Below, one piece after another: positions 1 to 38,635 of a stretch of DNA of 39,237 nt. Positions within the stretch are counted from its first letter, which is position 1, and each line of letters begins with the position of its first letter. This DNA comes from a virus, in the IMG/VR virus record IMGVR_UViG_3300045988_144194; one strand, written 5' to 3'. The translations under genes and the position numbers were made by a program. The notes under the pieces are model-generated. The model made no database searches, had not been told where the DNA came from, and was given only the letters and a program-made list of their open reading frames with translations.

Positions 1-316
1 TACGCGGGCATGGGGTCGGTGGTGCGCCATACGCCGGTGCATCCCGCATACGCGTTGTTCGGGTTGCCGAGCATGACCACACGGCCCGTATGCTCGCCGT
101 AGAGGATGAACGTGGTGTTGCCGCCGAACACGGCGATGGGAACGTTCGACGTTTCCGCTGGACGATACCCCACGGGTATGGTCTCCCGCGCCTGTGTGTA
201 GTTGTTCTCGCCGCTCTGGTTGAATTTCACGTTGCCGCCCGCGAAGCAGATATCACCCACGCGCGTCAGCGAAATACTGTTGTTGCTGTAGGGGACCCTC
301 CATGTCGTGGAACGCT
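1..316 (-). other. Silent alternative tail-fibre C-terminal cassette B (left copy), truncated by the window edge
   Basis: Read from the 15-bp site in the DSLT register, the frame stays open for about 105 codons to the window edge with strongly GC-rich third positions (DSLTQRSTTWRVPYSNNSISLTRVGDICFAGGNVKFNQSGENNYTQARETIPVGYRPAETSNVPIAVFGGNTTFILYGEHTGRVVMLGNPNNAYAGCTGVWRTTDPMPA...). It has no start codon, so it is absent from the ORF track. Confidence 0.6.
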
Positions 317-331
317 GGGTTAGGGAATCCC
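317..331. repeat. Recombination-site candidate L2, GGGTTAGGGAATCCC
   Basis: One of four identical 15-mers in the window. It overlaps the TAG stop of cassette A and precedes cassette B. It contains the imperfect palindrome GGGA-A-TCCC. Confidence 0.7.
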
Positions 332-1104
332 TATCCGCGCCACATGACGGCCCAGTTGACGCGGATAGGTGCCGTGTTTTTACCGTCGAACATGACATCG
401 ATACGGTTTCCGCTTCTCGTGACACGCACCGAGGTGACTTGACGGCCGTTCGCGTCCCAGTCCCCGTTCATGGCGGAAATGCAAACGTCATCGCCCCAAT
501 TACGGCCGAACTGTTGCCGGAACTGGCTGAACGTCCATAGGGTCGCATAACCGCCTGAGCCAGCATCATAGAGCACGCTGCTACCCGTGTAGAGATGCAA
601 CGGGGTTAGGGAATCCCACACGTCGCTCATCGGCTTCAACACGTTGAACAATGCGACTGGTGTGCCGATGGTGATACCGTCCAGCGGGATGCGGTACAAG
701 GGCATGTCGTAGGTGGTGCCCCCGTCCAACGGGCTGGTGGTGTTCACGGCGGGGTCGGTGGGCGTGCCCGTGGTGGGCGTGCCCCTGACCACGACCAGTT
801 TCGCGCTCTCGATGTTCTGCGAGCCCTTCGCATAGCGGCATACGATCAGGTCGTTGCGTTTCTGACCCTGCGACCCGTTGGTGACGATCAGGTCCTCGGG
901 CGTGCCCTGGCTGACGTGACGGCCCTGCATGACCAGCTCGCCCGTGCCGATGGTCACCTTGTTCGCGCTGACTACCGTGATTTCGAACTTGTTGTGCACG
1001 TTCAGGACATAATCGTCCAAGCCGAGAATGCCGGCGTTCAAACCAGCGGCCTGTTCCGCCGTGGCGTGAGCCTTGTTCGCGTGCCCGGTGACGAGTTCAA
1101 CCAT
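331..1104 (-). CDS. Tail fibre / receptor-binding protein, made of a constant N-terminal part (1104-618) fused to cassette A (last 89 aa)
   Basis: Last gene of the tail module. The ATG at 1104 follows a GGAGG and overlaps the upstream stop (AATGGTTGA). The sequence becomes part of the 617-bp repeat exactly at the 15-bp site (..VWDSLT|PLHLYTG..). Confidence 0.8.
   Translation of the reverse strand: MVELVTGHANKAHATAEQAAGLNAGILGLDDYVLNVHNKFEITVVSANKVTIGTGELVMQGRHVSQGTPEDLIVTNGSQGQKRNDLIVCRYAKGSQNIESAKLVVVRGTPTTGTPTDPAVNTTSPLDGGTTYDMPLYRIPLDGITIGTPVALFNVLKPMSDVWDSLTPLHLYTGSSVLYDAGSGGYATLWTFSQFRQQFGRNWGDDVCISAMNGDWDANGRQVTSVRVTRSGNRIDVMFDGKNTAPIRVNWAVMWRG
603..617. repeat. Recombination-site candidate L1, GGGTTAGGGAATCCC, inside the tail-fibre gene
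   Basis: Same 15-mer as 317-331, and inverted relative to 38621-38635 and 38907-38921. It encodes the conserved DSLT junction. Confidence 0.75.
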
Positions 1105-1339
1105 TCCGCTTGCCTCCGTTCTGCATCCAACTGTCGAAGCTGTTATCAAAGTCCTTGAGCTTGTTCACATAGTCCGCGTAATCCTGATCGCAAAACAGGT
1201 AGTCGTGGCCCGTGCCGGAGGAGTCCAACCGGTTGACGTTGTACCACGTCTTGATATCCGGATCGTCCAAGTCCTTGTACCATTTGTTTCTGCCGCAACG
1301 GTCGCATTGCATGACCGTCGCATTGTCGATACGCGCCAT
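1097..1339 (-). CDS. Small Cys-containing tail-module protein, function unknown
   Basis: 80-aa ORF lying between the Tal-like and fibre genes. It carries a CDRCG motif and is translationally coupled to the fibre gene. Confidence 0.55.
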   Translation of the reverse strand: MARIDNATVMQCDRCGRNKWYKDLDDPDIKTWYNVNRLDSSGTGHDYLFCDQDYADYVNKLKDFDNSFDSWMQNGGKRNG

Positions 1340-1356
1340 AATCGGCTCCTTACTGT

Positions 1357-2319
1357 TTACTCGGCCCCGTAATCGACGCTTAGGACGCCGTCGGAGACCT
1401 TGACGATTTTCTTGCTGATAGTCGCGTTGACGGTGATGCCCATGAGATTATCCCTTGCGGTCACGGTGTCGCCAACGTCGAACACGATGCCCGAATCCTC
1501 ATGCACGGTGACCTTCACCTCACCCTCGGACTGCAAGTCCTGAAGTTTCTTCTTCGTGTTCTTCGCCAACTCGTCCGCCTCGGCCGACGAATAGTCGTAC
1601 ACTTGGGCAATCTCGTCCAAACCCTTGAACGTCTGGGTTTGGCTGACGTTGCCTTTCGCGTCCGCGTACCAGTGGACGACCACGCGGGCCGCCAAATCGC
1701 CCTTGCCCAAACCGATCAGGTGATTCGGCTTCCTCCACGTGCGCGTCGCGTCGAAATCGATGAGGTCACTGTCAATCGAATCGCCGTAATGCGCGACAGG
1801 CTCAGCCCAGATGTTGACCCGGCCGGACGCATAGGCAAGCCTGAGTTTCAGTCCGTTGGCCGCGCACATCCTCCGCAAACCCGTATAGCAGTCCGTGTAG
1901 CGGTCGAACCGGTAGCTTTTGATGGTCTGCGCGCCGGCAGTGGGCGAGTCCACCGCGTCGAACACGCCGTCAAGGCCGACGCGACTGATGAGCGAGCCGA
2001 TGACCGTGCTGGCCGTGCCGCTCACGGTGAGATAATCCTTGCCCTTATCAGGCTCCAAAATCTTGTTCGCCAACATGCCGTGCCACGTGCGACCGCCGTA
2101 GGTGAGGGTGCTGCGGCCGTCCTTCAGCGAGTCCTTCAGGGAGTCCACGACGCCCCCGCATTCGCCGCCGTCGAAATACACGTAGCTACCGGCATCGATG
2201 AGCCGGTCCACGGTCAGTTCGAAATCGTTCTCGTCCGCGCCCCACGCGGCGTCGAGCGTGAAGTCCTCAAGGCTGGCTTGGTCCACGTGGCTCGCATCGG
2301 TGACGATCAGTTCCGCCAT
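1357..2319 (-). CDS. Tail-associated / baseplate protein (Tal-like position)
   Basis: Sits downstream of the Dit-like gene. The ATG at 2319 (MAELIVTDASH..) overlaps the upstream gene end. Call rests on synteny. Confidence 0.6.
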   Translation of the reverse strand: MAELIVTDASHVDQASLEDFTLDAAWGADENDFELTVDRLIDAGSYVYFDGGECGGVVDSLKDSLKDGRSTLTYGGRTWHGMLANKILEPDKGKDYLTVSGTASTVIGSLISRVGLDGVFDAVDSPTAGAQTIKSYRFDRYTDCYTGLRRMCAANGLKLRLAYASGRVNIWAEPVAHYGDSIDSDLIDFDATRTWRKPNHLIGLGKGDLAARVVVHWYADAKGNVSQTQTFKGLDEIAQVYDYSSAEADELAKNTKKKLQDLQSEGEVKVTVHEDSGIVFDVGDTVTARDNLMGITVNATISKKIVKVSDGVLSVDYGAE

Positions 2320-3137
2320 GGTGGCTCGCTTTCCTCCTGATAGACGGTCAAATCGACGCCGAAGCCGCTCCACTGCACGATGGAATCGCCAGCCGGTATC
2401 GGCTGGAAGATGTATTCGCCCCCGTTGAGACCGGTTCCGCGCCGGCCCTTGTCGAACACGTTGGTCTCGTCGCCGTTCTCGGCGGTCATGACGATGGTGC
2501 GACGGCCTGCAATCGAGGTGACGGTCACGTAGGAGCCCGAGGGTATGTCCATGTCGAGCGCGTACGTGTTGCCGCCCAACGTGAGTTGCGGGTTCGACAC
2601 CGGTCCGAATATCACCATCTGGAACGGCATGGCAGTGGGCATGGGATTCGAGGCCACCGCATTCCTCGTGGTCGCCAGATAATCATGCGGATAATCATGC
2701 GGATAGTCGAGGTCCAGTCCGGGCGTGAGCGCGTCGCTCCAGAAGTGCTGCGATTCCCAGGCCTTACGCCAGATGCCGTCAAGCATGACCACGGTGAGCT
2801 TCTGCTGGATTATCACCGGCGTGATGGTCTGCGGCTCCGCCTTGACCACGTAGGCGCGAGTCGTCCAGCCGTCAGCATCAAACATGCCCGGCGTTCCTGC
2901 GGCAACGTCGGCATCGAACAGGCGGCGCGTCGAATCCACCTTCTCGGGGCAGCGGACATAGGTTAGGTCAAGCTCGGCCTCGCGCGCCGTACGACTTACT
3001 CCGGTCAGACTCCGGTATCCGATGGTGTACGACCATTCGCGACCGCGCAGCCCATCCGCCGTCTGGGCCCAGGTATCGGGCCCTTCCAGTGGGATCGTCT
3101 CACCGGTCGAGGCGCATATATAACTAAGCGATCGCAT
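2307..3137 (-). CDS. Distal tail protein (Dit-like)
   Basis: Lies immediately downstream of the tape measure gene and has the size typical of siphovirus Dit. Call rests on synteny. Confidence 0.6.
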   Translation of the reverse strand: MRSLSYICASTGETIPLEGPDTWAQTADGLRGREWSYTIGYRSLTGVSRTAREAELDLTYVRCPEKVDSTRRLFDADVAAGTPGMFDADGWTTRAYVVKAEPQTITPVIIQQKLTVVMLDGIWRKAWESQHFWSDALTPGLDLDYPHDYPHDYLATTRNAVASNPMPTAMPFQMVIFGPVSNPQLTLGGNTYALDMDIPSGSYVTVTSIAGRRTIVMTAENGDETNVFDKGRRGTGLNGGEYIFQPIPAGDSIVQWSGFGVDLTVYQEESEPPWRN

Positions 3138-6042
3138 TGCGTATCACCCTTCCGAGTTCACGACCATCCACCTCGATGCCAAGCTTCTCCATAATCAGCG
3201 GCATATCCGCGTGCAGTGAGCGCAGCTCCGATAGGAGTTCGCCGAGTAGTTCGCCGGACTGGTTCTGGTATGTGCCGTTCGCGGTGCCTGTGCCGACGCC
3301 CGAGCGTGGCGTGTCCATGCCGTGCATGAGTTCCATGCTGGCCGGGCTGATCGCGGCGCGGGTGGCGTCCACGAGGCCGGCCCGGCGTTGGAGCATGCCC
3401 TCGGCCAGACCGTCGATGATGCTTTGGCCGGAGTAGAGGGTCCAGCCGTGGCCGCTGAACGGGCCTTCCTTCGCCGGGGAGTGCGGGAACAGTTTCGAGA
3501 TGGCCTCCATCGCGTTGGATGCGGCGTCAACGGCGGCGCTGATGCCGTTCCTGATGCCTTGGGCGAGACCGTCCATGATGCTGCGGCCGGATGAGAGGAG
3601 CCACGAGCCAGCGTTGGAGAACAGGCTTTGTATGCGTCCGGGCAGGCTCTGCAATGTGCCGGTGATGCCTTGCAGGAACTGGTTGCCGGCGTTGCGTGCG
3701 CCCGCCCCCATCTGTCCGCCCCATGCCTGTACGCTGCTTATCGCGCCGGTCAGCCATTGCCAGATTCGTCCGGGCAGCGACTGAAGCCATTGGCCAAGCC
3801 CGGTCAGGAACCGGCTTCCCGCGTCTCCGGCCTGCGCCATCATCTGTCTTCCCCATGCCTGCACGTTCTGGATGGTTTGAGTCAGCCATGTCCAGATTTG
3901 TGACGGCAGCTGCTGTATCCAGTTCGATAGGTTCGTCACGAAGTTCTGTCCGGCTTCCATCGCCTTGGAACCCAGTTGTTGGGCGAACGCGATGGGGAGC
4001 ATGATGGCGTAGCCGAGCCAGTAGCCGATGGTCTGCGGCAGCTGCTGGAACCATTGGCCGATGTTGGTCAGGAACTGGCTCCCCGCGTCCATGGCCTTCT
4101 GCGGCAATGATTGGAACCATTGTCCGATTTCGTCGAGCTTGGCCTTCACCGGTTCCACGAACGTGGAAAAGAAGCCGTTGACGGCGTTGGCCCCGGCGTC
4201 GCCGGAGAACAAGCCGAACAGGTTGCCGGCCATGTCGGCCAGCGAGCCCATCGGGTCGAGCAGGAATCCGATCACCTGGCCGAGGATGGGGAACTTCTCG
4301 TTGAGCCAGTCGATGCCGTCGGCGAGTTTGCCGACCGCCGACGCGATGCCGTCCAACACTCCGGCGACGGTCTCGACCACATTGGCGACCGCCCCGATGT
4401 ACGCGACGAATCCTTTCGCGGCGGCGGCGGCCGTGTCGAGCCCGTCACCCGCCCCTTCGGCGGACTTCTTGCCGCCGTCCAACGCCTTGCCGAGCCGTTT
4501 CAATGAGCCGAGGGCGTCGCCGAGCGCGGAGAATATGCGTTCGAGCGCGTCCATCCACGTGTCCAATGCGCCGCTGTCGGAGAGAGTGTCGGTGAATTTT
4601 TTCACCCATTCGGCCACGCGTTTGAGCTGGTCGGCCATCTTCTGCACGAGGTCGGCCGCGACCTTGATAACCGCACCCAGCAGTTCCGCGGAGCCCTTGG
4701 CCGAGTCGAAGCGGCCGGCCGCTGATTCGGCCATGTCGCCGGCACCACGGAAGGCGTCAGCGACGTCGCCGATAGCGTCGAACAGGCTGCCCAACGCGCC
4801 GGCAAGCTGCTGCACGGCCCCGGTGTCTTTCAGTGCGGCGATGAACTTGCTCCACCATTCGACGGTGTCGGCCACCCAGTCCGCGAAGTCGGAGAACACC
4901 GTGCCCACGTATTTGAGCACGTCCTCGATGGCGGAGACTATCGCGCCGTCCGGCACGAGGCCCTTGAACGACCCGGCGATGCGGTCTACCGCCTCGGTGA
5001 CGCGGCTGCGCGCGGATTCGAACGCCGTGGAGATGGTGTCCTTGAACCGGGTTATCGCGCCGGTCTTGTCGAGCTTGTCGTACAGGCCCTTGATCCACTT
5101 GCCCGCTTCGGAGAACTTCTTCTTCACGTCCGTGACCATGCTCGCGGCCGCGTCGCCCACCTTGCCGAACTGGGAGCTGAACCTGTTGATCGCGCCGGCG
5201 ATGTTCTCCACTCCGACGGCATCGATGACCTTCTGCACGGCCTTGGCGACGCGGTTCTTCACGTTCTCCATGGCCGTGCCGATGCCCTGCGTCGCGTCCT
5301 TGGCCTGCTGTGCGAACGAGGCGTATTTGCCGAAACCGTTCTGGTTGAGGTCCATGACGGCCTTGTTGAAGTCGTCGAAGCTGAACTTGCCGCTTTTCAT
5401 GGCCTCGTACAGGTCGTTCGCATTATGTCCCGCGCCCATCATGGCTTCGGCGACCTGATTGAGCTGGCCGGGCATGGCCGCCTGGATGCTGCGCCACGCC
5501 TGCATGTCCACCTTGCCGGCGGAGAGCATCTGCGTGTACTGGGTGAGCGCGTTCTCCTGCTCCATGGTCGAAGCGCCGCCGGCGAGCATGGCGTTATTGA
5601 ACGCCAAAGCGATGTCGGTGGCCTCGTCGAGGTTCGAGGTCAGTGGGGCGAGCTGCTGGACCATGCCGGTCATGGCCGAGCTGGTGGTGGGCAGACCGTC
5701 GAGCGCGTCACTGATCTTCTTGATGCTCGCGGCCGCATCGGTGGCCGAATATCCGAGGTTCTTCATGACCTTCGGGAAGTTGTTCATCTGGTCGGCGCGG
5801 TCAACTGCGGAACCAAGGCTGGACGTGACGACGGACGCGACCTTGCTGAACACGGTGGACGTGATGCCGGCCACGGCTCCGACCTTGGAGGCGAATCCGA
5901 CGGACAGTCCCTTGCCGATGCTCTGTCCGGTCTTACTGCCGGTGGTTTTGGATGCGTCGCCGAACGCTTTTTCAATGGCCTTGCCGACGCCATCCATGGA
6001 GGGCACGATGGGCACATATGCGGTGGCGAGATTATAGGCCAT
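3124..6042 (-). CDS. Tape measure protein
   Basis: 972 aa from the ATG at 6042. Ala/Gly-rich helical protein with internal roughly 40-aa repeats (QWFQ.LPQ.., AWG.QM.. motifs). Located after the chaperone pair. Confidence 0.9.
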   Translation of the reverse strand: MAYNLATAYVPIVPSMDGVGKAIEKAFGDASKTTGSKTGQSIGKGLSVGFASKVGAVAGITSTVFSKVASVVTSSLGSAVDRADQMNNFPKVMKNLGYSATDAAASIKKISDALDGLPTTSSAMTGMVQQLAPLTSNLDEATDIALAFNNAMLAGGASTMEQENALTQYTQMLSAGKVDMQAWRSIQAAMPGQLNQVAEAMMGAGHNANDLYEAMKSGKFSFDDFNKAVMDLNQNGFGKYASFAQQAKDATQGIGTAMENVKNRVAKAVQKVIDAVGVENIAGAINRFSSQFGKVGDAAASMVTDVKKKFSEAGKWIKGLYDKLDKTGAITRFKDTISTAFESARSRVTEAVDRIAGSFKGLVPDGAIVSAIEDVLKYVGTVFSDFADWVADTVEWWSKFIAALKDTGAVQQLAGALGSLFDAIGDVADAFRGAGDMAESAAGRFDSAKGSAELLGAVIKVAADLVQKMADQLKRVAEWVKKFTDTLSDSGALDTWMDALERIFSALGDALGSLKRLGKALDGGKKSAEGAGDGLDTAAAAAKGFVAYIGAVANVVETVAGVLDGIASAVGKLADGIDWLNEKFPILGQVIGFLLDPMGSLADMAGNLFGLFSGDAGANAVNGFFSTFVEPVKAKLDEIGQWFQSLPQKAMDAGSQFLTNIGQWFQQLPQTIGYWLGYAIMLPIAFAQQLGSKAMEAGQNFVTNLSNWIQQLPSQIWTWLTQTIQNVQAWGRQMMAQAGDAGSRFLTGLGQWLQSLPGRIWQWLTGAISSVQAWGGQMGAGARNAGNQFLQGITGTLQSLPGRIQSLFSNAGSWLLSSGRSIMDGLAQGIRNGISAAVDAASNAMEAISKLFPHSPAKEGPFSGHGWTLYSGQSIIDGLAEGMLQRRAGLVDATRAAISPASMELMHGMDTPRSGVGTGTANGTYQNQSGELLGELLSELRSLHADMPLIMEKLGIEVDGRELGRVIRNAIA

Positions 6043-6064
6043 TGTTTCGCCTTCCTCTGTTCGG

Positions 6065-6550
6065 TTATGGTTGTCCGGTCTGCGGCCGGTTCTCCACACG
6101 GTTCACGGTCGTGAACCGTTGGCTCATGAATCGGTCGAGCTGTTCGACGCTCATGCCAACGGCCTTGATGGTGCGCGTGCGACGGATGGTGTTGCCATCG
6201 GGTTCTGGGTTCTCTGATCCGGCTTCCATGGCCGGGCCGGTTGCTTCCGGCGTGGCGTGGTGTTGGCCGGGGCGTGGCAGCGGCCGGGGTTGCGGGCCGC
6301 GTTTCCTCGGGTCGCCGTTTGCCCAGATCCACTGGTTCATCTGTTCGATGCGCAGCACGGCCAGATACTGGTCGAACGTCCACGCGCGCGGCGTGTCCAA
6401 CGTCTGCCAGACGAGTGAGCCTGCGGGGAGGTTCGCGGCCAGTGCGGCCGTCTCCAACGGGTCCAGGTCGTGCATGCCGAGCCCGTACTCCCTTCTCATG
6501 TCCGCCGCCAACTGGTCAGGACAGCGGTCGAGCAGGAGCACGAGCGTCAT
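6065..6550 (-). CDS. Tail assembly chaperone T segment, probably made as a G-T fusion by -1 frameshift
   Basis: This ORF is in the -1 frame relative to 6547-6903. The slippery heptamer C CCA AAC sits 6 nt before the G stop. Confidence 0.75.
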   Translation of the reverse strand: MTLVLLLDRCPDQLAADMRREYGLGMHDLDPLETAALAANLPAGSLVWQTLDTPRAWTFDQYLAVLRIEQMNQWIWANGDPRKRGPQPRPLPRPGQHHATPEATGPAMEAGSENPEPDGNTIRRTRTIKAVGMSVEQLDRFMSQRFTTVNRVENRPQTGQP

Positions 6551-7343: not shown

Positions 7344-7886
7344 CTAGCTCATAGCCCCCCCCTTAAGGCTTGTGTTGTCGGGTTTCATCCAATCGTGCGC
7401 GGTAGTACCGGATTCCAACTGGATTCGGAGGTCGCCGTCCTTCGCGGTGGGCGTGGCCTCGGTGGAGATGACGTTGAGGAACAGGCTGACGGTGCCGGCA
7501 TGGATTGCCATGACACTGTTACCCAAGTTCATTTGGTCTCCCAGTTGCTGCCCCTTGGCGTCGAGGCACTTGATGTTGAAGCTCAAACCGTCGAGACTAG
7601 TGCCGCTGAGTTTCACGGTGCCCTGTACCGGGCATGGGAACGTCCACGACAGGCCACGCCATTGACCGGTGGCGGTGCCGGTGACATGCAATGACCCGTC
7701 ACTGTTAACGGTGGCGGTCAAACCGCTGCCCGACGCGGGGCCATAAGACAACAGGTTACGGGATTTGACCGTGACCGGCACCTTTTTGCTGATGTTCGGA
7801 TTGGTTGTCGACTTGATGGCGATTGTGGTGGTTCCGGGTTCCACACCGGTGACGCTTACCCCACCACTAAATACTTCATCAGCCAT
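7344..7886 (-). CDS. Tail/decoration protein that begins with the C-terminal half of a Big_2-type Ig-like domain
   Basis: The N-terminus ADEVFSGGVSVTGVEPGTTTIAIKSTTNPNISKKVPVTVKS resembles the second half of bacterial Ig-like group 2 domains. RBS AAAGGAG precedes the ATG at 7886. Confidence 0.7.
   Translation of the reverse strand: MADEVFSGGVSVTGVEPGTTTIAIKSTTNPNISKKVPVTVKSRNLLSYGPASGSGLTATVNSDGSLHVTGTATGQWRGLSWTFPCPVQGTVKLSGTSLDGLSFNIKCLDAKGQQLGDQMNLGNSVMAIHAGTVSLFLNVISTEATPTAKDGDLRIQLESGTTAHDWMKPDNTSLKGGAMS
7355..7362 (-). repeat. G8 homopolymer (C8 on the plus strand) at the junction of ORFs 7344-7886 and 7006-7314
   Basis: Counted directly from atagcccccc ccttaagg. The downstream ORF frame opens right after a TAA inside CTTAAGGGGGGGG and is -1 relative to the upstream ORF. 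Confidence 0.95.
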
Positions 7887-8322
7887 GGTTCACTCCTTTT
7901 CGAGAGATCGATGCGATGGACTTGTCAGCGACAGTCGCGGTCACCGTCTGGTCCGCGCCCTCCGGCAGGACCTTGACGTCGAGGCCCGCGGTCTCGCCGA
8001 CCCTGAGTGTCAACGACTCGGGCGTGACCTGGATGCCGGTGGGTTTGGACGGCAGCGGGGCCGGCAGCACGGCCTCGCCCTTCGCACGCGCATACGAGCC
8101 ATTGACCGTGCAATCCACAACAGTGACCACCTGACCGGTCTTGCCGTTTACCTGACCGTCCAAGGGGAACACGGTCCAACCGAACGCGAGGTCTACCACC
8201 GTGGCGCTTTCAACAACCGGTTTCGCGTCCGCGCTGGTTATCTTGTATCGACGCTGAAAGCCGGATGCTGGAGCCTCCGACACATTGACCTGCTGGCCCC
8301 CTTCACGGGCCGAGACAGTCAC
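7879..8322 (-). CDS. Extension ORF of the major tail protein (reached by -1 frameshift), ending with the N-terminal half of a Big_2-type Ig-like domain
   Basis: In the -1 frame relative to 8334-8909 and contiguous with it after a slip at CCCAAAA. The C-terminus IQVTPESLTLRVGETAGLDVKVLPEGADQTVTATVADKSIASI is Big_2-like. Confidence 0.65.
   Translation of the reverse strand: MTVSAREGGQQVNVSEAPASGFQRRYKITSADAKPVVESATVVDLAFGWTVFPLDGQVNGKTGQVVTVVDCTVNGSYARAKGEAVLPAPLPSKPTGIQVTPESLTLRVGETAGLDVKVLPEGADQTVTATVADKSIASISRKGVNHG
7913..7971. repeat. 59-bp perfect direct repeat (partner 10479-10537)
   Basis: gcgatggacttgtcagcgacagtcgcggtcaccgtctggtccgcgccctccggcaggac is present at both places. It encodes LPEGADQTVTATVADKSIA on the minus strand. 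Confidence 0.95.
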
Positions 8323-10464: not shown

Positions 10465-10630
10465 CGGACACCACCGTGGCGATGGACTTGTCAGCGACAG
10501 TCGCGGTCACCGTCTGGTCCGCGCCCTCCGGCAGGACACGTACCGTCACATTGGTTGTCTCGCCGGCTCGGACGGTGACGGTTTCAGGACTGGTCTCGAT
10601 GGATTGGGGTGCCGGCGTCACACTTTTGGG
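10457..10630 (-). CDS. Capsid C-terminal extension ORF (reached by -1 frameshift) encoding the N-terminal half of a Big_2-type Ig-like domain
   Basis: The -1 frame after CCCAAAA reads PKSVTPAPQSIETSPETVTVRAGETTNVTVRVLPEGADQTVTATVADKSIATVVSDD*. It shares the 59-bp repeat with 7913-7971. Confidence 0.6.
   Translation of the reverse strand, partial: PKSVTPAPQSIETSPETVTVRAGETTNVTVRVLPEGADQTVTATVADKSIATVVSDD
10479..10537. repeat. 59-bp perfect direct repeat (partner 7913-7971)
   Basis: Identical 59-mer, see 7913-7971. Confidence 0.95.
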
Positions 10631-23920: not shown

Positions 23921-24849
23921 GTCAGTACTCCTTCCCGTGATTGGTTTTCGGCGGCTTCCTCGGCCGCGTAGTGGGCTATCAGTGCCGCGTTCGCATCCTG
24001 GTTGGCCTGCGAACGGTTCCACGCCGATGGCGAGGGGCGTGCGGTCGGCTCGGGTTTGGCCGGCAGCGGGTCGTCGTCCCAGTGTTCGCCGTCCAGCCAG
24101 TTCGCCGGGGTGAGCGTGTAGCCGGGCTCACGGTTCGGGTCGGCGGCGTACCTCGACGCCTTGGCGATCAGGAACGTGTTGTTGGTTTTCCTCCGCGCCT
24201 TCCGCCAAGCCTCGAAGGCCTTGCGTTTGCCGGTCTTGCGTGGATAGGTCTGCCAGAACTGCTCGAACTCGATGGGATAATCCTCGTCGGCGCTCTCTGC
24301 GGCCCCCTCGGCTTGCGAGGGGGTTTGTGGGAGAGAGAATTCTTCGTTAGAAGAATTCTTATCTGTATCTGTATCTGTATCTGTATCTGTATCTGGCTTC
24401 GTTTTGCTTGAGTCTTGCTTCACGTCTGCTTCGTTTGTGCTTCGCGTCTGCTTCGTTTTGCTTGAGTCTTGCTTCACGTTGCGTGACTTGCCGGACGCTG
24501 CGCCACCTTTTCGGCCGGCTTCGGCTTTCTTCGCTTTAGCCTCCTCCACGTCAGCACGAGAACGACCCTGAGCTGCGACGAAATCATGCAGCCACAAGGT
24601 GCCGTCCTCATGCTCGTCTAAAAGATGCGCGTCGATGAGTGCGTCTATATCTTCATCGGAAGCGCCGAGCAGACATTTCAAATGGAAGCGGGACAGTTCA
24701 CCGTCGTTTAATTCGCCAGCGCAGTACGAGATCGCGAACGTCCACACGGAGAACGCGGAAGGGTGCTCCATTGCAAACACGCGAACTTTCTCGTTCTGCC
24801 ATAGGCGTGTGCTGAGCTTCGCGAACTTTTCCATATCGTGCCCGGCCAT
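23914..24849 (-). CDS. Replication initiator / replisome organiser-like protein with a repetitive linker
   Basis: The N-terminal winged-helix-like region and conserved C-terminal region (FEQFWQTYPRKTGKRKAFEAWRKA) are of the DnaD/phage-initiator type. They are separated by a low-complexity linker carrying VKQDSSKTK x2 and (DT)5. Confidence 0.6.
   Translation of the reverse strand: MAGHDMEKFAKLSTRLWQNEKVRVFAMEHPSAFSVWTFAISYCAGELNDGELSRFHLKCLLGASDEDIDALIDAHLLDEHEDGTLWLHDFVAAQGRSRADVEEAKAKKAEAGRKGGAASGKSRNVKQDSSKTKQTRSTNEADVKQDSSKTKPDTDTDTDTDTDKNSSNEEFSLPQTPSQAEGAAESADEDYPIEFEQFWQTYPRKTGKRKAFEAWRKARRKTNNTFLIAKASRYAADPNREPGYTLTPANWLDGEHWDDDPLPAKPEPTARPSPSAWNRSQANQDANAALIAHYAAEEAAENQSREGVLTC
24336..24359. 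repeat. Perfect 10-bp inverted repeat AGAATTCTTC-gtta-GAAGAATTCT
   Basis: Read directly from the sequence. It abuts the hexanucleotide repeat. Confidence 0.9.
24361..24395. repeat. Hexanucleotide microsatellite (ATCTGT) x5 plus a partial copy
   Basis: atctgt repeated in tandem. It encodes PDTDTDTDTDTDK on the minus strand. Confidence 0.95.
24396..24425. repeat. 30-bp direct repeat, copy 1 (gcttcgttttgcttgagtcttgcttcacgt)
   Basis: An identical 30-mer recurs at 24450-24479. Confidence 0.9.
24450..24479. repeat. 30-bp direct repeat, copy 2
   Basis: Identical to 24396-24425. Confidence 0.9.
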
Positions 24850-33102: not shown

Positions 33103-34236
33103 ATGGCGAACGTCACCAGATACAAGACCAGCAGGGGTGAGACTCGGTATCGAGTACGATACCGCAAGCCGGACGGCACGCAGACCGACAAGAGGGGCTT
33201 CCGCCGCAAGATAGACGCGGAGAACTGGGCGGCGGAGCACGTCACCATCGCCAAGGCCACCAACAGTTATATAGATCCGCAAGCCGGGAAGGCGACGGTG
33301 GAAGCATTGTGGCCGTCATGGATAGCCGCGAAGAAAGTCAAGTGCAAGGTAAGCTACATCGACTCGCTCGAAAGGGAGTGGAATCATCGCGTGGAACCCA
33401 TGTGGGGGAGCCGCGAGCTCGTATCCGTCACACACTCCGAAGTGCAGGAATGGGTGGCCGCGTTGACGGCGGCCGGGTCAAGCGCCACCGTGGTATTGCG
33501 CGCCGAAGGCATCCTATCCGGCCTGTGCAAACAGGCAGTGCGTGACCGGCTCATAGGCTCCAACCCCTGCGACGAGTTGGAGCTGCCGAGGAAGCACCGG
33601 AAGGAGCACCGGTATCTGAGCATGGCCGAACTGCTATGCCTGGCGGAAGCGTCGGGCTGGCGCAAACTCATTGTGCTGGTCCTGGGCTTGACCGGCATAC
33701 GCTGGGGAGAGCTCGTGGGTTTGCAGGTCAGGGACGTTGATTTGCGACGCCGCCGGCTGTGGATACGCAGGAACGCCACCGAGGTGCAACGTGAGATAGT
33801 GGTCAACACTCCTAAGTCGGACAAGTGGCGTCAGGTCGTGTATCCGGCAATGCTGGACGATGACATGCGGGCGTTGTGCGAGGGCCGCAAGCCCGACGAT
33901 ATCCTCTTCGAGGCTCCGGGCGGCGGCTACCTGCGTCGCACGCATGGGCCCAACACGACAAGCTCGTGGTTTTACTGGTCTAAGCGGCGCGCGGGCATCG
34001 AGGGCCAGATGACCGTGCATGATCTGCGGCATACCGCCGCGAGTCTCATGGTCAAAGCCGGCGCGAACGTCAAGGCCGTGCAACGCCAGCTCGGCCACAC
34101 TTCCGCCGCGATGACATTGGACGTGTACGCCGACCTGTTCGACGATGATCTGGACGCGGTGGGCGAGGCCGTGAACGCGATGCTGCTGGAGAATGTGGGC
34201 AAAATGTGGGCAAGGGATGCCGGTGAGGCCGCGTAA
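33103..34236 (+). CDS. int: Tyrosine integrase
   Basis: N-terminal arm-binding/SAM-like region (YRVRYRKPDG..FRRKIDAENW). The catalytic motifs GIRWGEL (R), HDLRHTAAS (H-x-x-R) and LGHTSAAMTLDVY (H...Y) are present. Confidence 0.92.
   Translation: MANVTRYKTSRGETRYRVRYRKPDGTQTDKRGFRRKIDAENWAAEHVTIAKATNSYIDPQAGKATVEALWPSWIAAKKVKCKVSYIDSLEREWNHRVEPMWGSRELVSVTHSEVQEWVAALTAAGSSATVVLRAEGILSGLCKQAVRDRLIGSNPCDELELPRKHRKEHRYLSMAELLCLAEASGWRKLIVLVLGLTGIRWGELVGLQVRDVDLRRRRLWIRRNATEVQREIVVNTPKSDKWRQVVYPAMLDDDMRALCEGRKPDDILFEAPGGGYLRRTHGPNTTSSWFYWSKRRAGIEGQMTVHDLRHTAASLMVKAGANVKAVQRQLGHTSAAMTLDVYADLFDDDLDAVGEAVNAMLLENVGKMWARDAGEAA
34192..34213 (+). repeat. Arm-type site candidate P: 2 x AATGTGGGCAA
   Basis: A 22-bp tandem 11-mer inside the 3' end of int. 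An identical 22-mer recurs at 34402-34423. Confidence 0.6.
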
Positions 34237-34261
34237 TCCAAGCGGGAGTAGGGCTTTCTGG

Positions 34262-34299
34262 TTTGGTTGGCCGGGGTTCAATTCCCCGCGCCTCCACCA
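34262..34299 (+). other. attP core candidate: 3' end of a tRNA/tmRNA-like gene (..CGGGGTTCAATTCCCCGCGCCTCCACCA)
   Basis: T-arm plus acceptor 3' strand plus CCA, with no 5' half upstream. Flanked by the 14-bp direct repeats GCGGGAGTAGGGCT at 34242-34255 and 34333-34346. Confidence 0.65.
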
Positions 34300-34360
34300 A
34301 TCCGCCTCGGCGGAAACAAGCCGCTTTGCCTTGCGGGAGTAGGGCTGAGCGGCTTTTCTT

Positions 34361-34396
34361 ATTCCCACGGTTTCCCTCGTATTCCCTCGGTTTCCC
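34361..34396 (+). repeat. Two 16-bp direct repeats, ATTCCC(A/T)CGGTTTCCC
   Basis: attcccacggtttccc tcgt attccctcggtttccc, located between the core and the P' arm sites. Confidence 0.8.
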
Positions 34397-34401
34397 GGAA
34401 T

Positions 34402-34423
34402 AATGTGGGCAAAATGTGGGCAA
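34402..34423 (+). repeat. Arm-type site candidate P': 2 x AATGTGGGCAA
   Basis: Identical to 34192-34213 and in the same orientation, on the other side of the core. Confidence 0.6.
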
Positions 34424-34429
34424 AAATTG

Positions 34430-34460
34430 AGCCCCGCACCGGATGGTTGCGGGGCTTTTG
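34430..34460 (+). terminator. Hairpin GCCCCGCA..TGCGGGGC plus TTTTG
   Basis: An 8-bp GC-rich stem and a short T run, downstream of int and the att core. Confidence 0.45.
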
Positions 34461-35824: not shown

Positions 35825-36136
35825 TCACGCGGCGAGGTCAAGGCGTTGTTTGAGTGCGCTGACGCCGATGAGCGCGCCGGCGAGGATGCCGAGCGCGTTG
35901 AGCGTGGTCACTATCGCGTCCACGTGCGGCCAGCCCCATGCGGGGCCGACCGTGTTGACGAACAGGGCGAGTGCGGGCAGGACGATGAGGCCGAGCCATT
36001 TGAGGATGTCGTAGACGCGGCTGGGGATGAGCCAGTCGGGCACGTCATGGGTGACGTCGGCGGTTTCGGGCCAGTCGCCCGTGTCGGGGCCGGGGAGTGT
36101 TTCGCCGGTGTCGGCCGGGGTTTTGCTGTCGGTCAT
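35825..36136 (-). CDS. Holin-like membrane protein (two TM helices)
   Basis: 103 aa from the ATG at 36136. TM segments LGLIVLPALALFVNTVGPAW and AIVTTLNALGILAGALIGVSAL. Adjacent to the endolysin gene. Confidence 0.6.
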   Translation of the reverse strand: MTDSKTPADTGETLPGPDTGDWPETADVTHDVPDWLIPSRVYDILKWLGLIVLPALALFVNTVGPAWGWPHVDAIVTTLNALGILAGALIGVSALKQRLDLAA

Positions 36137-36198
36137 GTTTTGCTCCGATCGATGATGGGGTGGTGCCGCCGTCGGGGGTGACGGCGGCACCGGTTGGT

Positions 36199-37347
36199 TT
36201 AGCGGCAGGTCACCACGTCGCCCGGGTAGTAGACGTTGATGTTGCCGGAGGGGACGGTGCATTGGCTGACGTTGTAGCCGTGGGATGTGGCGAACTCCCA
36301 TACCGTGTCACCGTACTGGATGGTCTTGGAGACCCCGTTGGACGGCGCGGTTGTGGTGCCGCCGTAGGTGACGACATCGCCCACGTAGTAGCGGTTGATG
36401 TCACCGGAGGGCGTGCGCCATGCGGACAGGGGCCACGCGTTGTAGTCGACCGCGAGTCCCCAGATGGTCTCGCCCCACCGCATGGTGTGGCTGATGCCTC
36501 CAGTGCTGGGAGTGGGCTGGGGAGTGTTCGGCTGCACGGGCGCGGCCGGTGTGGCCGGTGGCGTGGAGCCGCCGGTCGGGTTGGCGTACAGATCCCACTG
36601 CCATGCCTCGCCGCGGAACACGTTGAGGTCGATGGGACTCCACGTGTTGACGACACCGGTGCCGCTGTATTGGCGCATGGCCTCGCCGTACGCGCCTATC
36701 ATCCACGGGTTGGCCTGATAGCCGGTCGGGCTCATGTTGGCGTACTGGGCGATCCACAGGCCGTACCGGTCGCGGATGTCCTGCGGGATGGTGCCGGCGA
36801 CCGGGCCGGTGTACAGCAATGGGCGCACACCGCCGCTCAAGCGTTCGCACTCCGCCATGAATCGGCGTACCCAATCCCAGTTGCCCCATGCGGGGTTGTC
36901 GTCCATCTCCCAGTCGAGCGCCACGATGCCGTGACGCCAATAGTTCGACGTGTTGCGATAGAAGAATTGGGCTTCGGCCTCCGGGGTGCCTCCCATGGCG
37001 TAGTGATACAGGCCGAATTTTTTGCCGGATGCCTGCGCTTGGGCGATCATGCGGTTGGCGTCCGTGTTGACGCCGGACACGAGACAGTTGTTATACACCT
37101 GTCCCGTGCCCCATGTGGTGCCGACCACCACGAAGTCGGCCTGCGTGTTGGCGATGTCGATGCCGCACTGCCAGTTGGACACGTCGATGCCCTGCATGTC
37201 GGCGTGCGCGGTCGCCGGGAGCAGCATCATACAGACGGCGGCGACTAGGGCCGTGATCTTGGCGAGCAGACGCTTCCACCACGGCTTGTCCTTGTTTTTA
37301 ACCAATTTTTCCCCTTTCTCTGAGGTGAATATTGTTTTGTGGCCCAC
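36199..37347 (-). CDS. Endolysin: signal peptide, GH25 muramidase domain and two LysM-like repeats
   Basis: MQGIDVSNWQ..FGLYHY..DWE..DLNVF are GH25 hallmarks. The N-terminal KRLLAKITALVAAVCMMLLPATAHA looks like a Sec signal. Two C-terminal ~45-aa repeats (WGETIWGLA.., YGDTVWEFA..). The start may be the TTG at 37305. Confidence 0.88.
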   Translation of the reverse strand: MGHKTIFTSEKGEKLVKNKDKPWWKRLLAKITALVAAVCMMLLPATAHADMQGIDVSNWQCGIDIANTQADFVVVGTTWGTGQVYNNCLVSGVNTDANRMIAQAQASGKKFGLYHYAMGGTPEAEAQFFYRNTSNYWRHGIVALDWEMDDNPAWGNWDWVRRFMAECERLSGGVRPLLYTGPVAGTIPQDIRDRYGLWIAQYANMSPTGYQANPWMIGAYGEAMRQYSGTGVVNTWSPIDLNVFRGEAWQWDLYANPTGGSTPPATPAAPVQPNTPQPTPSTGGISHTMRWGETIWGLAVDYNAWPLSAWRTPSGDINRYYVGDVVTYGGTTTAPSNGVSKTIQYGDTVWEFATSHGYNVSQCTVPSGNINVYYPGDVVTCR

Positions 37348-37356
37348 GGTCGTGGG

Positions 37357-37662
37357 TCAGGACTGTCGTGGCGCTATCGGCGCGGATTGGATGTCATTGT
37401 TGAGCGATGTCCCGTGGCCGTTGCCGCCCAGGCTGTGATAGCTGTCGTAGAGGCGTTGGGAGCGTGATTTGAGGTCCTCGTCCGCCACTCCGTCGTGCTC
37501 GATGACCATTTCGCGGCGCAGGTCCTCCAACTGGCACAGCAGGAGCTCGCGCAGCCCGTTGACCATGGCTTTGCCCCATCGCCACATCAGGCCCAAAACC
37601 GTGGCCACGCCGCCACAGATAAAAGGCACGAGCCAATCGACGACGTGAGTGAGCAAAGACAT
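37357..37662 (-). CDS. Single-TM holin-like / lysis-associated membrane protein
   Basis: N-terminal TM segment (VVDWLVPFICGGVATVLGLMW). RBS AAAGGAG. First gene of the lysis cassette. Confidence 0.5.
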   Translation of the reverse strand: MSLLTHVVDWLVPFICGGVATVLGLMWRWGKAMVNGLRELLLCQLEDLRREMVIEHDGVADEDLKSRSQRLYDSYHSLGGNGHGTSLNNDIQSAPIAPRQS

Positions 37663-37684
37663 TGGAAAGCTCCTTTACGGTGGG

Positions 37685-37737
37685 GAAAACCCACACGTTC
37701 GTCCCCGTTGGATAGGCCAACGGGCGTGTGGGTTTTC
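37685..37737. promoter_or_regulatory. Nested perfect palindrome (13-bp outer arms, 8-bp inner arms) between the divergent holin-like and recombinase genes
   Basis: GAAAACCCACACG ttcgtc CCCGTTGG atagg CCAACGGG CGTGTGGGTTTTC. It ends at position 37737, which is the c of cGGAGG, so the GGAGG RBS of the recombinase gene (37738-37742) follows immediately. Confidence 0.9.
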
Positions 37738-37748: not shown

Positions 37749-38618
37749 ATGCTGTTACGAGAGTTTTGGAACGGCCGGTTTTGGCCGTATTGCACGGCGA
37801 ATCTGCGTGAGTCCACGTGTGTCGGCTATGAGTCGGCGTGGCGGTTGCACGTGGCCCCGAGGTTCGGCGCAATGCAGATGGAATCGATAAGCGTTGAATT
37901 GGTGGACAAGTGGCTCGCCGGTTTCGCCAGTTCGGGCGCGGCGCGCAAGGCGTGGGCCGTGCTCAGGGCCATATTGAGGCGGGCGATCCGCTGGAATCTG
38001 CTGGACGTGGATATCACGAGGCGTGATATCCGACTGCCGGCCAAGCCGCATTACGAGCCGGTGATATTGGGCATCCGTCAGCAGCGATCGCTGTTGCAGG
38101 GCTTTTACGACCATCCGCTTGAGGCGTGGCTTATCTGCGCCGTCTCATGCGGCCTGCGCACCGAAGAGGGGTACGGTTTGGAGTGGAGTGACATTGATCT
38201 GCGCGCAGGCGTCCTGCATATCGAGCGCGGTTTGCAATGGGTGAGCGGCCATGAGGTCGTCGTGCCGCCGAAGACCGAATTGAGCCGTCGCACGCTCCCG
38301 TTGCCGCGCTTCGCGGTCAAACGGTTGCGCGAGCTCAAGCCGCGCGAGGGAGGGCGACTCATCGGTGCGCTCACCCCGCCACAGGTGGCACGCCAGTACA
38401 AGGGCTGGTGCAAGCGGTATAGCCTGCCGCATGTGCCCGCACGCAACCTGCGCCACTCGTGGGCGACGAACACGTTGGCGGCGGGAGCGGATATCGCCAT
38501 CGTGTCGAAAATGCTCGGCCACAGCGATATCAAAACCACCGCGAAGTACTACCTCAAACCGGATATCACGGCTTTGCGAGACGCGCAACGCCTCTGGGAA
38601 CGAGCCCTAATAGCCTGA
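37749..38618 (+). CDS. Tyrosine site-specific recombinase (shufflon/Rin-type invertase candidate)
   Basis: GLRTEE (Arg), NLRHSWAT (H-x-x-R) and LGHSDIKTTAKYY (His...Tyr nucleophile). Smaller than int and lacks the arm-binding N-terminal domain. Its stop lies 2 nt from the 15-bp site at 38621. Confidence 0.9.
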   Translation: MLLREFWNGRFWPYCTANLRESTCVGYESAWRLHVAPRFGAMQMESISVELVDKWLAGFASSGAARKAWAVLRAILRRAIRWNLLDVDITRRDIRLPAKPHYEPVILGIRQQRSLLQGFYDHPLEAWLICAVSCGLRTEEGYGLEWSDIDLRAGVLHIERGLQWVSGHEVVVPPKTELSRRTLPLPRFAVKRLRELKPREGGRLIGALTPPQVARQYKGWCKRYSLPHVPARNLRHSWATNTLAAGADIAIVSKMLGHSDIKTTAKYYLKPDITALRDAQRLWERALIA

Positions 38619-38620: not shown

Positions 38621-38635
38621 GGGATTCCCTAACCC
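38621..38635. repeat. Recombination-site candidate R1, GGGATTCCCTAACCC
   Basis: Inverted copy of the 15-mer at 603-617. Confidence 0.75.

Follow-up and report, generated by a model that had tools for sequence, protein, structure and literature searches.

A probable Rin shufflon of tail-protein heads at the inverted terminal repeat of a metagenomic phage contig

The window analysed here is the entire contig of IMG/VR record IMGVR_UViG_3300045988_144194 (39,237 nt). At its left end an expressed tail gene passes from unique into repeated sequence within a few codons, and a second open segment follows in the same register. This raises the question of whether the locus exchanges the C-terminal part of a tail protein, which recombination would do so, and whether such a system is new. 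The locus is the already published Rin shufflon of Bifidobacterium prophages (PMC6109161), not a new system. As a whole, the window is very probably best explained as the Rin shufflon of a temperate Bifidobacterium siphophage, in which the mechanism proposed below would operate and the terminal repeat would record two states of one segment.

The tail gene, its switch site and the two cassettes

The left end of the window and the adjoining tail genes comprise the following features.

618–1104, minus strand: Rc, constant N-terminal part of a receptor-binding tail protein, assigned from its translation, PHROG profiles and tail-gene context
603–613, minus strand: rix site L1, 11-bp core TTCCCTAACCC within the expressed gene, read as the codons GAT TCC CTA ACC
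331–602, minus strand: Rv cassette A, the C-terminus now fused to Rc (PLHLY...VMWRG; TAG at 333–331)
317–327, minus strand: rix site L2, core in the same direction as L1, from site counts
1–316, minus strand: Rv cassette B (allele B*), silent C-terminus (QRSTTW...DPMPA), without a start codon and lacking the last base of its TAG
1097–6099, minus strand: upstream tail module, with the same gene order as in the related prophage L034
3124–6099, minus strand: tape measure, in the tail module
2307–3137, minus strand: Dit-like protein, in the tail module
1357–2373, minus strand: Tal/Gp37-like minor tail protein, in the tail module
1097–1339, minus strand: 80-aa protein, in the tail module

The open reading frame at 1104–331 (minus strand) translates as ...MSDVW-DSLT-PLHLY.... 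Its ATG lies at 1104–1102, and its constant part spans residues 1 to about 167 (T167), including the DSLT encoded across the site. Rc comes immediately after the genes for the tape measure and the Dit-like and Tal-like proteins, matches PHROG 13141 (positions 2–195) and the tail-protein PHROG 6779, and has 2800 homologues, B. longum proteins among them. The earlier note on this DNA, made from the sequence alone, had placed the change from unique to repeated sequence at 617 within the W-D-S-L-T codons, and this position is indeed the inner edge of a 617-nt, 100% identical inverted repeat.

The core TTCCCTAACCC is identical to the rix site of Mavrich et al. 2018 (PMC6109161). Exact copies are found at 603–613 and 317–327 on the minus strand and at 38625–38635 and 38911–38921 on the plus strand, with no other in the 39 kb. 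The longer motif GGTTAGGGAATCC is exact at 604–616 and 318–330 (plus strand), and its reverse complement at 38622–38634 and 38908–38920; at up to two mismatches the window holds six matches against 0.5 expected, a number reached in 0 of 100 shuffles. The 10-mer TTCCCTAACC is likewise confined to the rix sites and occurs nowhere else in the window, while the variants TTCCCTATCCC and TTCCGTAACCC are present in other lineages. The two sites within one arm had been described as direct repeats, and the cores of L1 and L2 do share one orientation, at a distance of 286 bp (1 modulo 3). The left flank of L2, ATAGGGAT, contains the stop of cassette A and renders 318–336 near-palindromic; the TAG at 333–331 sits in this extended site, so that the reported overlap of the stop with L2 holds.

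Cassette A is 93 aa long, counted from S-L-T, and has six different upstream partners across other contigs. An AF2 model of the Rc–A protein reached a mean pLDDT of 46.7 (Rc part below 50, cassette A part about 70–90) because the alignment was shallow, at ≥90% identity, and Foldseek with this poor model returned noise-level matches only, with no fold match for cassette A.

Cassette B, 108 aa from S-L-T, is better defined by its model. Read in the GAT TCC CTA ACC register, 329–1 (minus strand) contains 109 stop-free codons; this is the sole open frame among six, and chance alone leaves 3.5% of shuffles open. Its GC3 is 0.81, compared with 0.84–0.87 in the tape-measure, capsid and Rc genes, in agreement with the open DSLT register and coding-like composition noted earlier. 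The cassette does not run off the window as had been supposed: its TAG stop begins with the TA at bases 2–1. The L003 copy of B, with a nucleotide identity of 99.4%, continues with G and then with a further site, GTAGTTTTCCCTAACCC. A stop near the window edge combined with poor conservation would have spoken against B as a C-terminus; the stop is present, but as the natural end of a cassette that is well conserved, and the reading stands.

Nor is B invisible to ORF callers, B-type cassettes being called as orphan ORFs of 87–121 aa in other contigs. With B alone as query, the homologue search gave only orphan ORFs of ≤178 aa and no full-length fusions, which reflects a limit of the search, since fusions exist in the loci themselves. 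The Rc-DSLT-QRSTTW junction (WDSLTQRSTTW), proposed earlier as a check, was found in at least six related contigs (L001, L003, L005, L006, L007 and L013), and in L003 Rc is 96% and B 99.4% identical to the window. The exact B allele of this window gave 0 hits in the metagenome scan.

The AF2 model of cassette B has a pLDDT of 91.4. Foldseek matched it to the receptor-binding protein (RBP) heads of the lactococcal phages TP901-1 and p2 (3d8m, 3da0, 2f0c and 1zru) with a probability of 1.00 and TMq of 0.66–0.72, the maximum being 0.72, and the cassette aligns to PHROG 13141 at profile positions 201–296. These matches are in line with the beta-rich receptor-binding domain suggested from the letters alone, and the model supports a beta-rich RBP head, while the junctions in relatives support B as a real in-register alternative C-terminus.

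The Rin recombinase and the two contig arms

The right end of the window carries the recombinase and lysis genes, and both ends carry the arms of the repeat.

37749–38618, plus strand: rin, XerD-like tyrosine recombinase of 289 aa (Pfam Phage_integrase and SAM_3), convergent with Rc
38625–38635, plus strand: rin-proximal rix, with left flank AACGGGAT, joined here to cassette A
35825–37662, minus strand: lysis module, next after rin in the prophage gene order, as in L034
37357–37662, minus strand: 101-aa protein, in the lysis module
36199–37347, minus strand: GH25 endolysin, in the lysis module
within 35825–36301, minus strand: Dp-1-type holin, in the lysis module
33103–34236: separate integrase of 377 aa, distinct from Rin
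1–617, minus strand: left arm of the inverted terminal repeat, joined to Rc and composed of rix L1, A, L2 and B
38621–39237, plus strand: right arm of the same repeat, with rix, A, rix and B in the direction away from rin

Rin consists of a SAM-like and a catalytic domain without an arm-binding domain, and can be aligned with XerD from end to end. The alignment contains the Arg, an R-x-x-R in place of the H-x-x-R of XerD and the His of LGHSD; a candidate Tyr lies in the aligned KYY stretch, adjoining the position of the XerD catalytic Tyr. Against NCBIfam no cut-off was reached, and no Rci-type family was among the listed matches. The ORFs examined included no serine recombinase, and a promoter and terminator scan of the rin surroundings and the right arm gave nothing above chance. 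Five other assemblies encode an identical Rin protein and each of them ends shortly behind it, and the rin/A junction recurs in L023, L025, L026 and L027.

The right arm is the exact reverse complement of the left one (617 nt, 100%), and the repeat extends to both contig ends. Its inner edge lies at rix and its outer edge 3 nt short of the next rix, and both the Rc/A and the rin/A junction are contained in this contig. The shufflon middle is absent, the inverted Rv and rix copies seen here being the terminal repeat itself. The earlier note had counted on the inverted sites at the other end as partners for cassette exchange; a second set of cassettes there does not fit the relatives, whose contiguous Rc-to-rin loci carry each cassette once. 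Single-copy cassettes, 1.3–2.3 kb in all, join Rc to rin in L001, L003, L005, L013, L031, L033, L034 and L037, and prophage L034, with Rc–A 98% identical, has A once. Inverted cassettes with rix between Rc and rin are present in five of these relatives (L003, L031, L033, L034 and L037). Since each cassette is single in the contiguous relatives, the arms are best read as one A–B block in both orientations, and the inverted terminal repeat is most likely a single block captured in two orientation states. The same flank in two inverted copies also appears in L012 and L030, and other independent assemblies break at the same place. One point speaks against the one-block reading: a simple assembly-graph break would include the shared rix core, and the repeat stops 3 nt before it.

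In L034 the gene order is Rc, cassettes, rin, the 101-aa protein, GH25 endolysin, holin and host DNA, with Ppx-GppA as the host gene adjoining the prophage end. Since the lysis genes follow rin here in the same way, the contig is probably a phage genome that is circularly permuted, with its break within the shufflon. A single A–B block would then have been assembled onto both Rc and rin, which implies that the sequenced population probably contained the entire Rv segment in either orientation. Contigs that end in inverted terminal repeats, counted as complete linear genomes by some pipelines, can thus be artefacts of invertible segments, and such a repeat then becomes readable as evidence for both orientations in a sample. 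A perfect 1234-bp palindrome, formed by joining the contig ends, was considered and rejected because B's conserved TAG stop would be lost and the relatives offer no parallel.

It is conceivable that two strains, each fixed in one shufflon state, were co-assembled and contributed one junction apiece, with the repeat as a chimera and without active flipping in a single phage population, given that the source is a metagenome and that close relatives are abundant in gut samples (the 2800 homologues). We consider this unlikely, as the arms are 100% identical over 617 nt compared with strain differences of 1–5% in A and B, and the two states would still stem from inversion at these exact sites. Two physical A–B copies, whether a large inverted duplication on either side of the remaining shufflon or true inverted terminal repeats of a linear genome, would make the exchange between the ends in the earlier note a literal one, but are very unlikely: de Bruijn assembly is blind to the difference between inverted duplication and inversion polymorphism, both junctions are present at 100% identity and rin/A was seen in four other samples with identical Rin, but in no contiguous relative is a cassette duplicated in inverted orientation (A occurs once in L034), the repeat boundaries coincide with rix sites, and the order across the contig ends is that of a permuted prophage (tail genes, Rc, cassettes, rin, lysis), so that genome termini in the middle of a tail-to-lysis operon would be odd.

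Proposed cassette exchange by inversion, and the deletion alternative

A census of about 40 related loci revealed ten to a dozen cassette types, variable in order and orientation between Rc and rin; the cassette pool of gut metagenomes therefore exceeds the five Rv types first described (PMC6109161). Cassette B is found behind 10 different upstream partners, and each type that recurs has two or more, with all breakpoints within rix. Each promoterless Rv cassette starts with rix in the same register, and Rc ends with W-D-S-L-T, the rix codons. Together with the Rc/B junctions in relatives, this agrees with the original proposal that cassettes are exchanged at the C-terminal receptor-binding part of the tail protein, with the repeated site as the switch point. 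Among 50,697 phage records, blastn of positions 1–1400 gave no match, and only distant protein relatives were found (PMBT6 and ctl617; Rc 35–40% and Rin 52–56% identical). The homologue source names include B. longum and B. pseudocatenulatum, and relatives of Rin occur in Bifidobacterium genomes, which supports Bifidobacterium as the probable host genus.

Comparison across loci also narrows the crossover. The left flank of rix (−8 to −1) stays linked to the upstream element in every case, and an A/T polymorphism at +6 goes with the downstream cassette across three different partners. We infer that strands are exchanged only within the 7 bp TTCCCTA, at 607–613 in L1; this narrowing is an addition beyond Mavrich et al. 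A GGGA-T-TCCC palindrome had been entertained as the architecture of the site and was dropped, because the flank-linkage data fit only a 7-bp overlap with short arms (TGGGT / ACCCA). The site is asymmetric: ACCC on the right is conserved, and the left side is degenerate.

We propose that Rin would recombine inverted rix pairs, so that segments flip and a different cassette becomes the C-terminal head; such a head exchange would alter host adsorption specificity. In this assembly A is fused to Rc, and B, lying behind A in direct orientation, would be reached via two successive inversions. The earlier note had expected an inversion with the far-end sites to fuse B in frame. Because B lies behind A in direct orientation, a single inversion cannot do so, and two inversions, the route given by Mavrich et al., or a deletion are needed.

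The 286-bp deletion, suggested as the other route to B, is frame-compatible as claimed, but its reciprocal product was not found: the A-end/rix/A-start junction expected from the excised circle (GGATAGGGATTCCCTAACCCCGTTGC) had 0 hits in the IMG/VR scan. It is accordingly quite unlikely that B is normally expressed through Rin excision between the direct sites L1 and L2, with 286 bp removed and A lost irreversibly. Such excision would be exactly in frame, L003 has Rc/B and A nowhere, and individual loci contain between 2 and 6 cassettes. In addition, L008 contains a B-end/rix/B-start junction with tandem B copies identical at 327/327 positions, a signature of an excised circle or of unequal exchange, and Rin lacks an arm-binding domain that could set the direction of the reaction. 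Yet many lineages keep stable multi-cassette arrays in which several rix sites are direct, and both cassette orientations are seen with tail-to-tail pairs intact, as inversions predict. Mavrich et al. observed only inversions (PMC6109161), and a conserved-right, degenerate-left asymmetry like that of rix has been proposed to restrict Rci to inversions in R64 (PMC11852207).

Inversion thus remains the preferred route, beside which Rin may also recombine direct rix sites at a low rate, excising cassette circles of ~290–330 bp or duplicating cassettes, although we regard this as doubtful. If true, the shufflon would also lose, gain and lock receptor-binding heads, and the 286-bp deletion would be an occasional irreversible route to Rc–B. 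The identical B–B tandem of L008, Rc/B without A in L003 and the spread of 2 to 6 cassettes between loci would all go back to such events. Combined with the 7-bp TTCCCTA and the degenerate left arm, this reading would open the directionality puzzle of Mavrich et al. to a direct test.

Comparison with known systems

The model of cassette B superposes on the C-terminal heads of the TP901-1 (ORF49) and p2 RBPs at a sequence identity of just 15–19%. These two proteins are not known to undergo DNA shuffling.

Phage invertases such as Gin (Mu), Cin (P1) and Min (p15B) exchange the receptor-binding C-terminus of a tail fibre, in the case of Min with several cassettes. They are serine invertases acting on gix, cix and mix sites with a Fis-bound enhancer, whereas the recombinase found here belongs to the tyrosine family (Pfam Phage_integrase), and the locus falls outside their group.

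The shufflon of R64 and IncI plasmids works in a similar way: multiple inversions by a tyrosine recombinase (Rci) swap the C-termini of a surface-recognition protein, and that locus, too, breaks assemblies. Like rix, its sfx sites combine a 7-bp core with a right side that is conserved and a left side that varies, an asymmetry that is proposed to keep Rci to inversions alone (PMC11852207). The 7-bp crossover and the sfx-like asymmetry of rix are relevant to the question of how a recombinase without an arm-binding domain might prefer inversion to deletion. In sequence sfx and rix are unrelated, and the conserved part of sfx is about 19 bp (7-bp core and 12-bp right arm) versus about 11 bp in rix. 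The target in R64 is the tip of the PilV pilus adhesin, compared with a phage tail RBP here, where no pilV is present, and Rin looks like a generic Xer-type protein, with no Rci-type family among its listed NCBIfam matches. The locus works like an R64-type shufflon without being one of its members.

The Rin shufflon was described in the dnaJ2-integrated Bifidobacterium prophages Bb423phi1, Bl157phi1 and Bl30698phi1 (Mavrich et al. 2018, Sci Rep 8:12772, PMC6109161), whose authors themselves label it putative and reported similarity of Rc to the RBP of phage 1358 (PMC6109161). A putative programmed phage host-range switch in a key genus of the infant gut has thus been in print since 2018. The window shares with it an Rc of about 167–168 aa following tape-measure, Dit and Tal genes, and promoterless Rv cassettes of about 90–125 aa. 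The core TTCCCTAACCC is identical, with two direct rix sites, the first within the full-length gene and the second immediately behind it. In both, Rin, a tyrosine recombinase without an arm-binding domain, is encoded convergently and followed by lysis genes, with a separate phage integrase, and a likeness of Rv to the TP901-1 RBP head (here for B) and a probable Bifidobacterium host complete the correspondence. We see no essential difference between the two: the window is another genome of the same group, with its shufflon partly assembled.

Locus layout and recombination sites

The window is an entire contig, since the longest contig recorded for its Rc-A protein measures 39237 nt, and represents the genome of a temperate siphophage with high GC content (60.6%); the locus at its ends is the already published Rin shufflon. 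It comprises Rc, the constant N-terminal part of the tail receptor-binding protein (RBP), variable C-terminal cassettes Rv (here A and B), recombination sites (rix) and rin, encoding a tyrosine recombinase.

Genes of the window
Minus strand: terminase, portal and capsid genes
3124-6099, minus: tape measure
2307-3137, minus: Dit-like gene
1357-2373, minus: Tal/Gp37-like gene
Between the Tal/Gp37-like gene and the ORF 1104-331, minus: 80-aa gene
1104-331, minus: Rc-A ORF (...PMSDVW-DSLT-PLHLY...), TAG stop at 333-331
37749-38618, plus: rin, 289-aa tyrosine recombinase, just inside the right arm
Behind rin, minus: 101-aa gene, GH25 endolysin, Dp-1-type holin
33103-34236: integrase, 377 aa, distinct from Rin

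A related prophage (L034; Rc-A 98% identical) contiguously carries the tape measure, Dit, Tal, the 80-aa gene, Rc-A and five more cassettes, followed by the convergent recombinase, the 101-aa gene, GH25, holin and host DNA. This gene order indicates that the contig is a circularly permuted genome cut within the cassette region, and that its two ends are opposite sides of a single locus. The probable host is a Bifidobacterium, as supported by homologues named B. longum and B. pseudocatenulatum and by relatives of Rin encoded in genomes of B. pluvialisilvae and B. pongonis.

The 13-mer GGTTAGGGAATCC occurs at 604-616 (L1, in the expressed gene) and 318-330 (L2, at the cassette A stop), with its reverse complement at 38622-38634 and 38908-38920. 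Six matches at up to two mismatches were detected versus 0.5 expected by chance, and the 10-mer core TTCCCTAACC has no further copy in the window beyond those sites. The spacing from L1 to L2 is 286 bp (1 mod 3). As the earlier note correctly observed, the two sites repeat in direct orientation, and B is open in the GAT TCC CTA ACC register.

Several other repeats were found. A perfect 59-nt direct repeat (7913-7971 and 10479-10537, 2566 bp apart) encodes the Ig-like motif VLPEGADQTVTATVADKSIA in both copies. One copy sits at the C-terminal end of a tail protein encoded at 7879-8322 on the minus strand; its counterpart directly follows the capsid stop, in an open frame different from that of the capsid gene, suggesting a frameshift extension or a decoration domain. 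Right after the integrase gene, AATGTGGGCAA is repeated (two tandem copies at 34192-34213, two or three at 34402-34434), and similarity to the end of prophage L034 resumes at 34312-34437; the region 34192-34434 probably represents attP, including arm-type sites for the integrase. A perfect 30-nt direct repeat in the early or replication region, GCTTCGTTTTGCTTGAGTCTTGCTTCACGT (24396-24425 and 24450-24479, 54-bp spacing), could be regulatory or consist of iterons. Between the divergent rin and 101-aa genes (37676-37735) lies a long hairpin, AAAACCCACACG...CGTGTGGGTTTT, uncalled by a simple terminator scan.

Cassette B as an alternative receptor-binding head

Bases 329-1 provide 109 stop-free codons (DSLTQRSTTWRVPYSNNS...DPMPA) in the GAT TCC CTA ACC register, the sole open frame among six, with a GC3 of 0.81 (Rc, capsid and tape-measure genes: 0.84-0.87). 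The earlier note had B running off the window. In the related locus L003 (Rc 96% and B 99.4% identical to the window), however, B ends in ...DPMPA, followed by TAG and the next site GTAGTTTTCCCTAACCC; window bases 2-1 are thus the TA of this TAG, and B is complete at 108 aa from S-L-T. An early stop combined with poor conservation, envisaged as evidence against the cassette, was not encountered: the stop is the natural end of B, and its family is well conserved, with 100 cluster representatives retrieved at identities down to 46% and motifs including GYRP and MLGNP (nearly) invariant. Nor do such cassettes escape ORF callers, as had been supposed, since B-type cassettes are called elsewhere as orphan ORFs of 87-121 aa. 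One 95-aa orphan ORF (P0220) is chimeric, with an E-type N-half (MPYSDRYITLVRVGRIV...) and a B-type C-half (...MLGNPNNAYAGCTGVWRTADPMPAA), suggesting homologous recombination between related B and E cassettes.

The predicted fusion junction WDSLTQRSTTW was found in L001, L003, L005, L006, L007 and L013. An AlphaFold2 model of B (49 homologues; pLDDT 91.4) contains eight beta strands, and its best Foldseek matches in the PDB are all lactococcal phage RBP heads, namely TP901-1 ORF49, p2 and their chimeras (probability 1.00, TMq up to 0.72). The model and these matches point to B being a beta-rich receptor-binding domain, as proposed earlier. Moreover, Rc aligns to profile positions 2-195 of PHROG 13141 and B to 201-296, so a phage protein family combining Rc-type N-termini with B-type heads already exists. 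The AlphaFold2 model of Rc-A was poor (pLDDT 46.7; below 50 across Rc), and its structural matches were not meaningful.

Crossover position and route of switching

About 40 related loci were collected from IMG/VR, ENA, Logan, NCBI and GTDB genomes; all rix were parsed and cassettes translated from the S-L-T register. About ten to a dozen cassette types were distinguished (A, B/B*, C, C', D, E, F, G, H, I and a few more), varying in order and orientation and always located between Rc and rin. In some human-gut contigs cassettes A and H follow a variant rix, TTCCCTATCCC, and the B. pluvialisilvae locus has this form alone (5/5 sites); B. pongonis possesses a minimal two-cassette switch with TTCCGTAACCC. 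Positions of TTCCCTATCCC or site variants are L005 2757, L021 340, L029 2175, L030 36, L031 264, L034 6713, L019 3073-4724 and L020 5648-6291. In L028, L029, L031, L032 and L034, A stands tail-to-tail with cassette I; in place of the functional site found after the A stop in the window, they have a decayed, rix-like relic, GTAGAAAAATCCCTTAACCC.

Comparison of 59 distinct sites shows no variation at positions 0 to +9 (TCCCTAACCC), in the T at -1 or in the G at -4; the rest of the left flank is variable. The left-flank sequence (-8 to -1) depends strictly on the upstream element, of which there are 13 (among them the Rc end TGTGGGAT, the rin side AACGGGAT and the B end CGTAGTTT), whereas an A/T polymorphism at +6 (TCCCTA[A/T]CC) travels with the downstream cassette: H has T behind Rc, rin and the E end, and the same left partners carry A before other cassettes. 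Together these confine the exchange to -1 to +5, the 7 bp TTCCCTA. A weak dyad (TGGGT / ACCCA) surrounds it, conserved on the right and degenerate on the left. The same logic is followed by R64 sfx, with its 7-bp core, conserved right arm and variable left arm, an asymmetry proposed to restrict Rci to inversions only (PMC11852207).

Since B lies behind A in direct orientation, a single inversion cannot fuse it to Rc. Inversion at L2 would turn B around, and a subsequent inversion at L1 would join it to Rc, the two-inversion sequence described by Mavrich et al. (PMC6109161). The earlier guess at the mechanism was thus broadly correct, but its deletion route, L1 x L2 recombination removing 286 bp, is unsupported and would be a rare side reaction at most. 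The product would be in-frame Rc-B; the number of cassettes per locus (2 to 6) and L003, which has the Rc-B junction and lacks A, are both compatible with occasional direct-repeat events. So is L008 (IMGVR_UViG_3300045988_114268), a contig starting exactly at rix that carries at 1-664 two tandem identical B copies (327/327) joined B-end/rix/B-start, a signature of duplication, of a cassette excised as a circle or of a loop made by the assembler. However, a search of IMG/VR for the reciprocal A-circle junction found none, multi-cassette arrays with several direct sites persist widely, and the tail-to-tail pairs C/D and I/A remain intact, as inversion-only dynamics predict.

The inverted terminal repeat and the published Rin shufflon

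The arms (1-617 and 38621-39237) form a perfect inverted repeat touching both window ends. Every contiguous Rc-to-rin locus (L001, L003, L005, L013, L031, L033, L034 and L037) has each cassette in single copy, the only exception among related loci being L008, which is incomplete, beginning within the shufflon and missing rin. At its inner edge the repeat begins exactly where the flank of Rc (..GTGT/GGGATTCCC) and that of rin (..GAAC/GGGATTCCC) come to agree; the outer edge falls 3 nt before the third rix. The repeat ends in ...CCCGCGTA (1-3 and 39235-39237), 3 nt short of the rix expected from L003 (GTAGTTTTCCCTAACCC); the repeat excludes the rix core, although a break of the assembly graph of the simple kind, at a site shared by both flanks, would have taken it in. 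Contigs with identical Rin end 32-405 nt past rin, with the rin-A junction in 4/5, and L021, L022 and L035 break just inside the shufflon.

Taken together, the single-copy relatives, the repeat edges, the rin-A junction and the similar breaks elsewhere lead us to interpret the repeat as a single A-B block that the assembly joined to each of its neighbours, which would make it evidence of both orientations in the sample. For the rin-A junction to arise, the rix of Rc must recombine with the one next to rin, which inverts the Rv segment as a whole; in virion DNA this variant was found to predominate (Mavrich et al., PMC6109161). In L012 (3531/4852), L030 (36/989) and L036 (730-1500) the same shufflon flank occurs twice, inverted (L012 and L036: Rc end; L030: B end), so two-orientation captures in one contig recur in these related loci. 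Cassettes at the other end, whose inverted sites the earlier note took as partners for exchange by inversion, are most likely an assembly image of the same DNA. A real inverted duplication of the arms is unlikely, and nothing supports it. Contigs with inverted terminal repeats may, as a warning, image an invertible segment.

Rin aligns with XerD in GLRTEE on GLRVSE, RNLRHSWAT on HVLRHAFAT and LGHSD on LGHSD, and its Tyr, in the aligned KYY stretch, adjoins the XerD catalytic Tyr. The sole departure in these boxes is Arg for the first His of H-x-x-R (R-N-L-R at residues about 232-235, window 38442-38453, versus H-V-L-R in XerD).

The Rin shufflon was described in the Bifidobacterium prophages Bb423phi1, Bl157phi1 and Bl30698phi1 (Mavrich et al. 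2018, PMC6109161) and also reported in Eggerthella lenta prophages (PMC8778435). The former study defined Rc as a constant RBP N-terminus of 168 residues, Rv as variable C-terminal genes of 95-100 residues, rix as the 11-bp TTCCCTAACCC upstream of each Rv, with two direct copies, one within the full-length gene and one just after it, and Rin as an armless tyrosine invertase (PMC6109161). The window rix matches the published one base for base, T167 is the last residue of the constant part, and the layout is likewise identical. Our additions are modest: a crossover narrowed to 7 bp, a larger pool of cassettes, variant sites from other lineages and the warning on inverted terminal repeats.
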